The notes under the pieces were generated by a model. The model ran no database searches. It was not told where the DNA came from and saw only the letters and a program-made list of their open reading frames with translations. From an uncultured Alphaproteobacteria bacterium (GTDB lineage Bacteria; Pseudomonadota; Alphaproteobacteria; Rhizobiales; Hyphomicrobiaceae): DNA of 64,000 nucleotides. A program made the translations under genes and the position numbers. Shown here piece by piece: positions 4,296 through 13,838 of the stretch. The DNA is taken from contig CAVZHG010000014.1 of assembly GCA_963775035.1 (NCBI GenBank), positions 2,850 to 66,849 of the forward strand, written 5' to 3'. Each line of letters starts with the position of its first letter. The stretch's first letter is position 1.

Positions 4296-4974
4296 TTACG
4301 CCTTGATGTGGCGGAACATGTTGCGGCGTGCTTCGTCGTCGTTCTCGGTCTTGAAACTGAAGCGGTCCTTGAGCTTGACGGCGCGCTGCGCGGCGGGCCG
4401 CGCCTCGATCTCGTCGATGAGGCGCTTCAGGTGCGGCAGCTTCGCCCAGGCTTCCTTGCCGAGCACCATCGGAATGAGCCGCGCCCAGCCCCACACGTCC
4501 ATATCGACGATCGTATAGGTGCCGCCGACCATGTAGGGCTGCTTGGCGAGACGGTCGTTGATGATGCCGAAGTGGCGCTCCGCCTCGAAGACGTAGCGCG
4601 TGATCGCGTACTGGATCTTCTCGGGCGCGTAGTGCTGGAAATGCACGGCCTGGCCGCCATAGGGGCCGACGCCGGACGCAACGAACATCAGCCACGAGAG
4701 CAGCTCGCCGCGATTGGCCGGCGTGTTGGGGGGAAGGAACTTGCCGGTCTTGTCGGCGAGATAGAGCAGGATCGCGTTCGAAGTCGAAGACCTTGGCGTC
4801 GCCGTCGACGATCGCCGGCACTTTCGAGTTGGGGTTGATTGCGACGAACTCAGGCGCGAACTGAGCGCCCTTGCGCGTATCGACGGGGATCGGCTCGTAC
4901 TCGAGACCGGCCTCTTCGAGGAACAGCGCCACTTTCGTCGGGTTCGGCGCGCCGGAGAAGTAGAACTTCAGCAT
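4296..4974 (-). CDS. Glutathione S-transferase, YfcG/Nu-like (frameshifted near 4780)
   Basis: MLKFYFSGAPNPTKVALFLEE...INPNSKVPAIVD...; C-terminal YTIVDMDVWGW. Confidence 0.85.
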
Positions 4975-6404: not shown

Positions 6405-7036
6405 CGATCAAACCCTCGCTGGCGCCGTGCGCCAAACAGCAGAAAACGTGCCACGGCCGGCTCGTCCCAAAGGAAAGCGGCTCCGCTCCGTTTTGAGACG
6501 TCTATCGGGCGATCAGATCGCACTCCAGCGCAAATTTGACGCGCCGCAACCGGCCCCTCCCGAAGCCGGCAGCAACATTCATGCCAGGACCGCAGACCTT
6601 CCGTACCCGCGATCTCCGGCAGTCGGCGTGGCGGAGCGAGCCGTGTCGCCCATCGTGTAGCGATGCTCTGCATCGACGAGAGCCTGTGCTGGAAGTGCTT
6701 GATAGTGTTCCTCGAAGCCGGCAACCCACTCGTCCAGCGGGCACGGTTGTGCCTGCGAATCAGGAGCGAACGATGAGCAGACGACCGAGGCGGAACCACT
6801 CACCGGCCTTCAAGGCGAAGGTGGCGATCGCGGCGATCAAGGGCGAGCGGACGATCGCTGCAGATTGCAGAGCAGTTCGACGTCCACCCGAACCAGATCA
6901 CGACCTGGAAGGCGCAGCTCGAAGGCGGCGCCGCCGATGTGTTCGATGGCGGCAGCGGCTCGGCGCCTGCCGCGCCCGCCGTCGACGTGAAGCAGCTGCA
7001 CGCGAAGATCGGCGAGCTGACGCTGGAGAACGATTC

Positions 7037-8420
7037 CTAAGAAACGGCACCGCCGGCGTTGTCGGCTCAATCGGCTGAAGAACAAAGCCGAATGTCTTGG
7101 CGCGCCGATGCAGATTGTTCGACCACCCGCGTGCGGTATCGTGTCTCGTAGAACGATGCGCCCGGGTCGACATATTCCATGCCGTGACGCACGGCGTTGT
7201 AGAACAGAACTGCGATCTTGCGCGCCGTGGCGGTGACCGCCTTGGCCTTGCCGATGCGCGCCGAGAGCCGCCTGTAGAAGGCGCCGAGCGCGGTGTCGGT
7301 CCGCCCAACGGTGACGGCAGCAAGCCGCAGGAGCGCCGCCGCACGGCTCCCGGACCGGCTTCGTTCGTGACGAGAGCACTCTTGCCGCCGGAGATCTTGT
7401 TGTTCGGCGCCAGACCCAGCCAGGAGGTGAAGTGCTTGGCACTCGGCCATGCGGAGAGATCGTCGCCGCATTCAGCGATCAGCTTCAGCGAGAGGTAAGG
7501 GCCGAAGCCGTCGATCTTGGTGATGTCCTTTCCGAGCAGCGCGAACAGCGCCGACGCGGGCATCGAAGGCCAGTCCGTTGACTTGATCGGTTCGCCGACG
7601 AGACGGCGGCAATGCATCTGACCAGTGACCGCGACCGATGCTGAGTTCCTTCATGACGGCTTCGATCCGGACGTCGCAGGCCGAGACCTTCTCATGGTAC
7701 GCATCGTAGAGGGCAAGTGCCTGTTCGAGCGCAAACAGGTGCTCGGCGCGGTAGTTACCGGTGAGCGCCTTCTCGATCGTCTCGGCACTGGAGTGGCACC
7801 GGTAATCGCGCAAGCCCGCCAGCACCTTGGGGTCATGCTCGCCGGAGAGGATTGCGCGGATGATCCGCAATCCAGTTGCGCCGGTGATGTCGGCGACGAC
7901 ATGATGGAGCTGAAGATTCATCTCGGTCAGCGCCTTCTGCATGTGCTGAATATGCGAGGCCGCATACTCGAGCAGACGCTCGCGCTGGCGTACGTAGGCA
8001 CGCAACTCGTGAACTGGCCTTTGGGCCGAAAGCTGGCGCGCAGCAGGCCGTAGGAATGAAGCCGCTGCAGCCACTGCGCATCGCTGACGTCGGTCTTGCG
8101 TCCGGGCACGTGCTTGGCATCGCGCGCATTGACGAGGAACACGGTGAAGCCACGGGCATCGAGAAGCTCGATAGATCGGAATCCAGTAGACGCTGGTCGA
8201 TTCCATCGCGACGGTCTCGACGCCGCATTCTGCAAACCAATCCACCAGCCGATGCAGATCGGTCGTGAAGGTTCCGAAGCTGCGCACCGGCTCTGGCGTG
8301 CGATCCGCCCTCACGGCAGCCATCAACAAGGTCGCCCCGACATCGATGGCGGCCGCGTTGGGGTGCACCATCGGCATGGTGCGGTCGACTCTTGGATTTT
8401 GCTCTTTTCCGGGGCATCAT
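7037..8420 (-). CDS. IS110-family DEDD recombinase/transposase (frameshifted)
   Basis: AAAIDVG, VAMESTSVYWIP, GRKTDVSDAQW, SWLGLAP...ISGGK, KAVTATARKIA; AGGAGG RBS upstream; stop codon at the element end. Confidence 0.9.
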
Positions 8421-8464
8421 CAATCCTCCTGCTGACAAGGCGGAAGGGCTGGGCTGCGCCAATG

Positions 8465-8646
8465 ATCAGATTCCTAAACGGGATCGCCGGATGGCGTCAC
8501 CACTCTCAAGTGCGCAACAGCCCATGGACCAGGTTTTTTAACGGGGTTACATGCCACCAAAATCGTATACGGCCGCTCCCTTCCGGGCGCAGTCGTAGCA
8601 GTGACCCGTTTCTATCCCCACAGGGGGCGACGCAGCGCCAGGATAG
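8465..8646 (-). ncRNA. Putative IS110 bridge/seek RNA (target-binding loop followed by donor-binding loop)
   Basis: Two similar loop units on the minus strand: ACGATT-TTGGTG..CCCGT-TAAAAAA-CCTG and GAGAGT-GGTG..CCCGT-TTAGGAA-TCTG; their variable parts match the target and the donor junction. Confidence 0.7.
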
Positions 8647-8694
8647 TTTTTTAGAGGGCGCGCTCACCAAGGCGGGATTGCTGAGCGCAAAGCG

Positions 8695-9529
8695 ATGATC
8701 GACCGTGGTCATGCGTTGAGCGTCACCAAGCAGGCCGAGGCGTCGGCATCGCGCGCAGCACGGTGTACTACCTGCCGCGTCCGGTTCGGCGGCCGATCTC
8801 GCGCTGATGCGCCGGATCGACCGAGCTGCATCTGGAGTTGCCCTTCGCGGGCGCGCGGATGTTGCGCCGGCTGCTGGCTGCCAAGGGGAGCAAGGTCGGA
8901 CGGCGGCATGTGAAGACGCTGATGCAGCGGATGGGGATCGAGGCGCTCTATCGCCGGCCGCGCACGACGAAGCCGGAGCCCGGGCACAAGATCTACCCGT
9001 ATCTGCTGCGCGGCCTGGAGATCACGCGGCCCAACCAGGTGTGGGCGATGGACATCACGTACATCCCGATGGCGCAGGGCTTCGTCTATCTCGCCGTCGT
9101 GCTCGACTGGTTCAGCCGGCGCGTGCTGTCGTGGCGGCTGTCGATCACGATGGAGGCGGCGTTCTGCGTCGAGACGCTGGAGGAGGCGCTGGCCCGCCAC
9201 GGCAAGCCGGAGATCTTCAACACGGATCAGGGCTCGCAGTTCACGTGCCCGGCCTTCACCGGCGTGCTGGCCAAGCACGACATCGCGATCAGCATGGACG
9301 GCAAGGGCGCTTGGCGGGACAACGTGTTCGTCGAGCGGCTGTGGCGCAGCGTGAAATACGAGGAGGTCTACCTGCGCGCCTACGACAGCGTGAGCGACGG
9401 CACGCGACTCGATCGGCCGCTACCTCGATCTCTACAATCGCCGTCGCCCGCATTCGAGCCTTGACGGCACGACGCCCGATCAGGCCTACTTCGGCCACCA
9501 GGCTGCCGCCGATCCGCTTGGCGGCCTAA
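8695..9529 (+). CDS. IS3 OrfB DDE transposase (frameshifted)
   Basis: [39 protein letters not shown]. Confidence 0.9.
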
Positions 9530-12369: not shown

Positions 12370-13769
12370 GTGAAGCCAACCGATACGACCTCCTTGACGG
12401 CGGCCGAGCTTCCCCCCGCGGCCGTGAGCGAATGGTCGGCCGCCGAACCGAAGGGCACCGGCGAGCGCGAGGAGGATGCCGTCCGCTATGCCGCGTTCTG
12501 GGCGCGGTCGCGGCAGCTCGTCACGAGCCTCCCGGTCAAACCGAAGCGGAGTGCGGCCGAACGCGCTGCCGCCGAAACTGTCCTTACGGCCGCCCGCGCA
12601 TCACGCGACCGCTTCCTCGCCGCGCACTGCGCGTGGATCTACGATCGCCTGACAAAGGGGCGAACCGCATTCGTGCGCGTCGAGGATCTCGTCTACGACG
12701 CCGCCGCCGCGTTCCCGGGCCTCGTGCCGACGCGAGAGGAGGTGGCGGCGGAAGCAGCTCTCGACCAGCGCGACAAGGACGGCATCGAGATCGACCAGGG
12801 GTTGTTCATCGCCCACGTTCTGGCCGGCGAGCAGGCCGGCCGGCACCTCTGCCACGCGATGCTACTGCCGCGAAACGACAGCGCCGAGCACGCCGCGAAG
12901 TTCGCGACTGACGGCGTCCTCGATCTCGGCTCGGCTCGACTGCATCGCGATGGGCGCGCAGTCCACCTTACCGCGGCGAACGCGCGCTTCCTCAATGCCG
13001 AGGACGACACGACACTCGACGAGATGGAAATCGCCGTCGATGTCGCAATGCTCGATTCCGCGAGCAGCATCGTCGTCCTGCGCGGCGGCACGGTCGACCA
13101 TCCGAAGTACCAGGGTCGGCGCATGTTCGGCGCCGGCATCAACCTCACGCACCTCTATCGCGGCAAGATTCCTTATCCTCTGGTTCCCGCGCCGCGACCT
13201 CGGCTACGTCCACAAGATCTTCCGCGGCGTCGCGACGCCCGACCTGCTTCCCGACGACGTCAACGGCCGCGGCATCGAGAAGCTCTGGGTCGCGGCGGTC
13301 GACACGTTCGCCATCGGCGGCCACTGCCAGCTCCTGCTGTGCATGGACTACGTGGTCGCTGGCGCCGACGCCTTCATGACGCTGCCGGCACGCAAGGAGG
13401 GGATCATCCCCGGCCTCGCCAACCTGCGCCTGCCGCGCTTCGTCGGCGACCGGATCGCCCGCCAGGCGATCCAATATGGCCGCCGCCTCGCGTGCGACAG
13501 CCCGGAGGGACGGATGATCTGCGACGAGATCGTCGCCGCGACGGACATGGACACGGCGATCTGCCGAGGTCGTCGGCTGGGCTCACGAGTTCCGGCGCGG
13601 TCGGCGCCATCGGCAACCGCCGCGCCTTCCGGGTCGGCGCAGAGCCGCTGGACGTATTCCGGCAGGTATTTCTCGGTCTATGCCCGCGAGCAGGCGCTAC
13701 TGCCACTTCAGCCCGGCGCTGATCGCCAATCTCGAGCAGCATTGGAATGCCGCCGAGCGCGCGCTATAG
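12370..13769 (+). CDS. DpgC-like crotonase-fold arylacetyl-CoA dioxygenase homolog (frameshifted)
   Basis: LRGGTVDHPKYQGRRMFGAGINL, EKLWVAAVDTFAIGGHCQLLL, LPARKEGIIPGLANLRLPRFVG and KDGIEIDQGLF...GRHLCHAMLLP recall actinobacterial DpgC. Confidence 0.75.
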
Positions 13770-13838
13770 AGAGTGCGCCAAAACCCCATCGGCCATGGAT
13801 CGATCCAGCCGGGGCGCGGCGCCGGGAGAACACGACAT

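Follow-up and report, generated by a model that had tools for sequence, protein, structure and literature searches.

IS110-family recombinases are guided by bridge RNAs, and an initial annotation of the 64,000-nucleotide stretch of alphaproteobacterial DNA analysed here (the window) had proposed that the non-coding end of one IS110 element carries readable guide segments for its own target and donor. The question raised by this locus is whether these segments belong to a genuine bridge RNA, and in which order and on which strands such an RNA would read the target and the ends of the element. The element, a member of the ISPpu9 branch of the IS110 family, occupies 7034..8648 on the minus strand (1613 bp plus a second copy of the core). 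Its core reads TT on the plus strand, corresponding to AA on the recombinase strand, at both the right end (7034..7035) and the left end (8647..8648). Position 7033 is joined directly to 8647, with 1613 bases skipped, in contigs from 4/4 sequencing runs, which cover related organisms only (best share 0.12) and in none of which the strain of the window occurs; at this empty-site joint two bases fit either side. With TT at both ends and the empty-site joints in agreement, the boundaries and the AA/TT core of the initial annotation proved right, and the non-CT core is in itself no novelty because ISPpu9 is reported to recombine at AG (PMC12288879). Among the joints listed in the contigs of these runs, which represent relatives with shares of at most 0.12, no circle joint was found. 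In genome G000, which is 56% complete, the element is present as a single copy.

The empty site is also present in L250, an intact related IS3-family element, where it lies within the overlap of orfA and orfB. Comparison with L250 places orfA of the host IS3-family element, as far as the frameshift run, at 6779..7035 and the remaining T-run together with orfB at 8647..9500 (both plus strand; NF033516 with E 2.3e-57, PF00665). In orfA of L250 a T_TTT_TTA heptamer underlies the residues D-F-L-E, and no stop interrupts the -1 frame before the annotated gene ends. Because of its position and its X_XXZ_ZZN form, which is the published definition of a slippery motif (PMC4066793), we infer that the T-run is probably the functional frameshift site of the host IS3. 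The IS110-family element is inserted in this T-run with a 2-bp TT repeat. The host IS3 copy carries five single-base indels, and the DEDD recombinase gene of the IS110-family element (7038..8419, minus strand) is itself broken by seven, located near 8390, 8174, 8010, 7554, 7379, 7361 and 7120 and common to the comparisons with four homologs; the indels of both genes may stem either from decay or from errors of assembly.

Intact homologs of the recombinase, which include that of L001 (Bradyrhizobium sp. CB82), are about 460 amino acids long. Two fragments from the window match NF033542 in a profile search, and protein P0002 matches PF01548, PF02371 and NF033542. The DEDD RuvC-like domain and the Tnp domain with its catalytic serine, which define the IS110 family, are both present, with the motifs spread across reading frames. 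Upstream of the gene lies a non-coding region of about 230 bp, while its stop codon is overlapped by the right end of the element. Homologous loci were gathered from plasmids, genomes, metagenomes and viral contigs. A recombinase match was present in 234 loci; 7 without the N-terminus and 63 that did not fit the RNA pattern were left out, and the remaining 164 loci together with the window gave 124 distinct guide sets. Rows that are still mis-parsed (e.g. L001, L061, L188, L211) were scored as misses, and the null expectation for covariation was obtained by permuting partners among elements, which are kin and not independent of each other. In a recombinase tree of 117 proteins (a quick search, midpoint-rooted, with IS621 and IS1111 rows absent) the element groups with ISPpu9-like loci, and the 55 rows labelled as AA-core form a single branch (SH-aLRT 99) among AG-core and ISPpu9-like rows. 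L123 and P0002 share 43-44% identity. Among the rows with the VYWIP motif only ISAzo22 and ISCARN20 are named, and ISPpu9 has the same motif; the tree table of PMC11208160 lists a cluster from the clade of the window element, to which it gives no ISfinder name.

An alignment of 60 sequences from close relatives predicts a bridge RNA of about 145 nt at 8441..8585 (minus strand), built from a closing stem and two loops, one for the target and one for the donor. Over the aligned parts (closing stem, target loop with 10 nt per side, donor arm) 96.8% of the cells are paired and 19/31 pairs show two-sided changes, a pairing level that was reached in 0/500 shuffles and that drops to 38-51% in slid controls, the structure having been derived from the same alignment that was used to score the pairing. 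Folding of the single sequence lends no support (z -0.05 for the whole non-coding end, z -1.06 for the RNA span), the predicted RNA has no match in Rfam, and a promoter and terminator scan returned neither, with no sigma-70 consensus in the linear left end. By eye, the relatives share a TAnnnT-like motif that immediately precedes the predicted start of the RNA, some 50 nt into the element from its left end; in the window it lies at 8591-8600 (minus strand) and has one extra base compared with the relatives. A short RNA helix of 3-4 bp is also visible at 8499-8511 (minus strand), where ACU pairs with GGU in 98.3% of the cells, with three two-sided changes among the 60 sequences; it would cover part of the 5' guide of the donor loop and may represent a closed state of the bridge RNA. 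A hairpin burying the 5' segment of the donor loop was considered as a caveat only, as low a value being reached in 0/100 shuffles for close kin and in 11/100 for distant members. An antisense RNA as the carrier of the guides was rejected by reasoning, since the cores would sit at the 5' ends of the guides and the invariant G-U pairs of the alignment would turn into mismatches.

The initial annotation had assigned four guide segments to two similar units with a common TGGTG...CCCGT scaffold, and all four segments as well as the scaffold are found on the minus strand where it had placed them. In the target loop, the 5' guide ACGATTTT (8559..8566) is the reverse complement of core plus right target in recombinase orientation, and the 3' guide TAAAAAA (8534..8540) is identical to left target plus core. 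In the donor loop, the 3' guide TTAGGAA (8471..8477) is identical to the right-end 7-mer that includes the core (7034..7040, minus strand). Each 3' guide is followed by candidate handshake bases: CC at 8532..8533 tracks the two outermost left-end bases, whereas of TC at 8469..8470 it is the first base that tracks the first base of the right target. In 5000 dinucleotide shuffles of the non-coding end, exact matches of the three guides occurred in 0.16%, 0.18% and 0.82% and all three jointly in 0/5000, whereas a one-mismatch match such as that of the remaining segment, GAGAGT (8507-8502), to the core-adjacent half of the donor was obtained in 54%. By these frequencies, three of the four proposed guides match beyond chance and GAGAGT does not.

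Covariation among the homologs supports the same three guides. The 3' guide of the target loop matches upstream of the RNA at 7/7 positions in 83/119 homologs (16.3 when permuted), its 5' guide pairs with the first four bases of the right target at 211/384 positions (111.3 permuted) with a clean diagonal, and the 3' guide of the donor loop equals the right-end 7-mer in 92/105 homologs (27.2 permuted). Below 70% protein identity the corresponding values are 28/44 against 1.3, 80/136 against 37.4 and 33/39 against 3.2, and the covariation of the three guides is kept at 80, 70 and 60% dereplication. For the target-loop handshake, agreement was seen in 95/102 elements at the first left-end base and in 52/102 at the second (77.5 and 24.7 permuted); for the first base of the donor-loop handshake it was 57/96 against 29.9, weak after dereplication (17/34 against 13.3). 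As a control, the guide order of IS621 gave no excess (244 against 249.0 permuted), and it is the mirror order that the data support. The guides stand in mirror order relative to IS621 and ISEc21 although the RNA lies upstream of the gene. In the relatives the guides change together with the target and the right end across the 124 guide sets, which supports natural reprogramming. Taken together, the alignment and the guide covariation support a bridge-type RNA with two loops, one matching the target and one the donor, and argue that the predicted RNA of this element is a genuine, naturally reprogrammed bridge RNA.

The partner of the 5' segment of the donor loop had to be sought elsewhere than at the junction. 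After 70% dereplication the GAGAGT register scores 46/180 pairs against 45.8 permuted, with no diagonal against the left end, and the 32 elements that carry GAGAGT have 17 different left-end 5-mers, the perfect one in none. Among close kin this register, one of three, reaches 126/245 against 117.8, a value attained by 15/3000 permutations. Pairing of the donor 5' segment with the junction was rejected in three registers, including a bulged one, none of which held. Nor did covariation among the homologs reveal a donor loop that reads both sides of the junction core, as the loops of IS621 and ISEc21 do. The RNA was compared with the interior of the left end in 69 elements with both ends, a fitting right end and a 6-nt repeat arm. 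RNA positions 9-6 upstream of the scaffold GG have the same sequence as left-end positions about 10-7 before the repeat arm, with a per-position diagonal of z 6.6, 5.1, 4.7 and 4.5. In a register fixed in advance the test gave 271 against 224.2 +/- 5.1 permuted, with flat controls on the opposite strand (225 against 221.9) and at the junction (217 against 217.1). A refined 4-nt register, picked after the matrix of the fixed test was seen, gave 202/276 against 137.6, and 81/108 against 49.2 at 70% and 43/52 against 23.5 at 60% dereplication, each figure being reached by 0/3000 permutations; it holds at 80% dereplication as well, and the opposite strand stays at or below expectation. The signal comes mainly from distant members (141 against 107.3 permuted); the close clade alone, in which the fourth guide is almost invariant, is a weak test (130 against 126.4, reached by 66/2000). 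In the window, the revised 5' guide of the donor loop is CUUG at 8507..8510 (minus strand), which shares one base with GAGAGT, and its predicted partner, with one U-G wobble, is the internal left-end site CAGG at 8621..8624 (plus strand). With this assignment, the gene-antisense strand is complementary to the 5' as well as to the 3' guide of the donor loop.

The ends of the element contain further paired features. An asymmetric 8-bp inverted repeat has its right-end arm at 7040..7047, 4 bp from the core, and its left-end arm at 8606..8613, 33 bp inside the left end (both plus strand). Inverted repeats of at least 6 nt are present in 74/82 homologs, the left arm beginning 29-38 nt inside in 73/74, and the arms covary, with at least 7 nt in 54/82 homologs against 17.1 permuted; all seven GTTCCT right ends are paired with AGGAAC left arms. 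A search with a repeat-finding program yielded nothing further. The outermost 7 nt of the left end (8640..8646, plus strand) form a variable leader of which only the first two bases, those of the handshake, track the RNA. The leader is followed by a DNA hairpin, GGCG/CGCC (8626..8639, plus strand), the predicted closure of a fold-back; its first paired base is at left-end position 6-10 in 51/69 homologs with a predicted hairpin. The element also shows the end layout of ISPpu9, with a 16-bp right box and a 43-bp left box with an inner hairpin, and the published end boxes of ISPpu9, inspected by eye, likewise have a leader of 7 nt and a hairpin, together with a 6-bp repeat that is shared with the right box and lies 35 nt inside the left one (PMC12288879, Table S2).

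Since the guides stand in mirror order and one of them matches inside the left end, the element is likely to recognise itself as a folded-back single strand, and a mirror-order bridge RNA reading such a fold-back single-stranded donor is the arrangement that we consider probable. The 3' guide of the target loop matches 7 nt of left target plus core, and the 5' guide of this loop about 4 nt of right target; in the donor loop the 3' guide matches the right end and the 5' guide the internal site, 7-11 nt before the left repeat arm, both on the gene-antisense strand. The gene-antisense strand would be cut first, because the 3' guides with their following handshake bases bind it, as in IS621, and it would be excised as a single-stranded circle. 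Through pairing of the repeat arms and the small hairpin, the junction would then take the form of a bubble, with about 13 nt on each side, that mimics an opened duplex donor. The fold-back would place the internal site opposite the four core-adjacent bases, which is the position that the target-loop 5' guide reads in the target. A single strand exchange would insert the complete strand at the target, leaving the second strand to be made by replication. The one-exchange insertion of a folded single strand would resemble the recombination of integron cassettes. For IS621, the circles released are reported to be mainly single-stranded (bioRxiv 2026.08.31.748434), and single- and double-stranded circles are both reported for CazIS110-1 (bioRxiv 2025.10.25.684509). 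Also in favour, changes to either box of ISPpu9, or to the bases that follow its left AG, are described as causing circles to be lost or misplaced (PMC12288879).

Parts of these data would fit other arrangements. The mirror-order RNA could act on a double-stranded donor, the recombinase binding the repeat arms as duplex with the left end looped out and the RNA reading, on a single strand of the opened duplex, both the internal site and the right end, with no fold-back. Such a donor would explain the covariation of the repeat and of the fourth guide equally well. The folding energies single out no strand and speak against fold-back, the other strand folding better in 41/70 cases and the predicted strand in 26/70; the site of the 3' guide is open in only 24/68 folds with the repeat stem, among loci selected for having the repeat. 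The short RNA helix at 8499-8511 would also count against fold-back, as it would cover part of the fourth guide, and circle formation by ISPpu9 is reported to survive mutation of the inner left-end palindrome (PMC12288879). Against a duplex donor, the two guides of one loop in IS621 pair with opposite strands (PMC11208158), and it would leave unexplained both why pairing of the arms brings the internal site to face the four core-adjacent bases and why a hairpin follows the 7-nt leader; we regard it as rather unlikely.

It is also conceivable, if improbable, that only three guides operate, the donor loop reading the right end alone, the left end being found by the protein (through the repeat) and by the target-loop handshake, and the internal match stemming from shared ancestry or promoter constraints. 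The strand-specific diagonal that persists below 60% identity (43/52 against 23.5) is difficult to reconcile with this, whereas the weakness of the fourth-guide signal in close kin agrees with it, as do the location of the internal site where a promoter would sit, ISPpu9 being reported to transcribe from within its left end (PMC8450116), the possible burial of the CUUG segment in the short RNA helix and the half-match recombination reported for IS621. The initial annotation had envisaged an ordinary duplex junction that is recognised on either side of the core, the first five left-end bases serving as the partner of GAGAGT. The 5/6 match in the window copy and the small excess among close kin speak for it; given that an equally good match arises in more than half of the shuffles, that the excess disappears on dereplication, and that one and the same guide occurs with 17 left-end 5-mers and shows no diagonal against the left end, we consider it very unlikely.

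The closest studied relatives of the element are ISPpu9 of Pseudomonas putida KT2440, ISAzo22 and ISCARN20, which belong to the same protein branch (PMC12288879, PMC8450116). With ISPpu9, which is known here from its published end boxes and the start of its protein alone (PMC12288879), the element shares a long non-coding end upstream of the gene, a purine dinucleotide as the site of recombination, a short right box and a long left box with an inner hairpin, and ISPpu9-like loci, read by eye, have the same mirror-order guides. ISPpu9 is described as having an AG core and an internal promoter but no junction promoter (PMC12288879, PMC8450116). The element differs from it in its AA core and in targeting the frameshift runs of other insertion sequences instead of REP sequences. 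The accessible text of the ISPpu9 papers assigns no guide segments, and ISPpu9 is grouped there with elements without end inverted repeats (PMC12288879). In two ISPpu9-like loci, L254 and L278, about 60 extra bases lie between the left box and the RNA and include a GC hairpin set between A- and T-runs, which may be the terminator of an Asr9-like antisense RNA; the clade of the window lacks these bases.

With IS621 and ISCro4 the element shares the DEDD and Tnp domains (profile E 2e-17 and 5.9e-14; PMC11208160, PMC11208158; PDB 8wt6, 9t56) and an upstream two-loop RNA with the target loop first, a 2-nt core and guides ending in the core, and with IS621 a handshake dinucleotide after each 3' guide (PMC11208158). 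In contrast to these systems as described, its recombinase has about 460 rather than about 330 residues, the guide order is mirrored relative to the gene, the core is AA instead of CT, the long perfect guide is the 3' one, and the donor 5' guide would read an internal site on the same strand and not the junction. ISEc21 is reported to have the guide order of IS621, and IS1111 elements the reverse (PMC11187229). A top-strand match before the bottom-strand match and a sub-terminal inverted repeat are accordingly common to the element and the IS1111 group (ISEc11, ISPa11, ISKpn4), from which it differs by an RNA upstream instead of downstream, a protein of about 460 against 330-350 amino acids, and a repeat of 6-10 bp at 33/4 bp from the ends instead of 11-13 bp at 7/3 (PMC11187229). 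ISEc21 is likewise of IS110 type with an upstream RNA, and its target is also a conserved site inside IS3-family transposase genes; this site, however, comprises the codons around the second catalytic Asp, its bottom-strand match comes first, and its protein has 358 amino acids (PMC11187229).

A mirror-order upstream bridge RNA, a fold-back donor and homing to frameshift runs were not found in the literature text of PMC11187229, PMC11208160, PMC11208158, PMC13626964, PMC13604230 and bioRxiv 2025.05.14.653916, 2026.03.19.712850, 2026.08.14.744561 and 2026.10.21.760802; such RNAs may already be depicted in published figures (e.g. Fig. S12 of 2026.10.21.760802 and, for PMC11208160, Extended Data Fig. 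10), in supplements or in subscription papers. The readable parts of the PMC11208160 supplements contain no match to the RNA or the right end of the element. Whether IS110 circles are single- or double-stranded, and how a single-stranded circle could be re-inserted, has been posed as an open question (bioRxiv 2025.10.25.684509, 2026.08.31.748434). An RNA written to read a folded single strand, if the fold-back donor is true, would make this question testable through a few compensatory changes, and the ISPpu9 group already has a genetic system. Guide order would then not be tied to the position of the RNA, the design rules would comprise mirror order, an AA or AG core and single-stranded cargo, and rules based on IS621 would mis-program such recombinases. 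The copy in the window, broken or mis-assembled, is not itself a tool.

The fate of the target guide within the AA-core sub-clade was followed in 55 close loci with both junctions, in 49 of which the flanks could be scanned. The hosts comprise 33 IS3 elements, 3 IS630 elements, 4 tandem IS110 copies and 9 without a family, and 30/33 of the IS3 profile matches start at position 84-90 of 369. Of the IS3 cases, 11 are T-runs in antisense orientation, as in the window, and 22 are A-runs in sense orientation, with the short guide differing accordingly. Judged from the flanking sequences, the sub-clade appears to land mostly in frameshift runs of IS3 (33/49) and IS630 (3/49). As the long guide is an A-run, it would direct homing to the frameshift runs of other insertion sequences and the splitting of their transposase genes; such runs would offer a conserved, low-cost landing site, and insertion there inactivates rival elements. 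On balance, we lean towards the view that a widespread branch including ISPpu9 uses a folded single-stranded circle as a donor read in mirror order, one sub-clade of which has been retuned to the frameshift runs of IS3 and IS630 in either orientation.

Several individual loci show peculiarities. In L079 and L005/L006, which have an AA core, the long target guide is not an A-run (CTTCGAA and CACATAA, respectively); the flank of L079 matches its own guide at 5/7 positions and the flanks of L005/L006 do not match. Tandem element copies are found at the right junctions of L110, L051, L066, L075, L038 and L095: in L110 the tandem copy forms an exact natural right-end/core/left-end junction, and L051, L066 and L075 contain one or two additional A, as would be expected had a further copy entered the A-run at the existing left junction. 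The reconstructed sites of L105, L115, L109, L036 and L082 seem one A short of an in-frame IS3 junction, which suggests slipped insertion in A-runs or sequencing error. L128 is a truncated member located between two annotated IS5-family transposase genes. Elsewhere in the window, two further reading frames, at 4296-4900 and 12370-13800, look frameshifted by eye, while their neighbours (435 and 790 amino acids) are whole; we take the former to be glutathione S-transferase-like and the latter to be enoyl-CoA hydratase-like.
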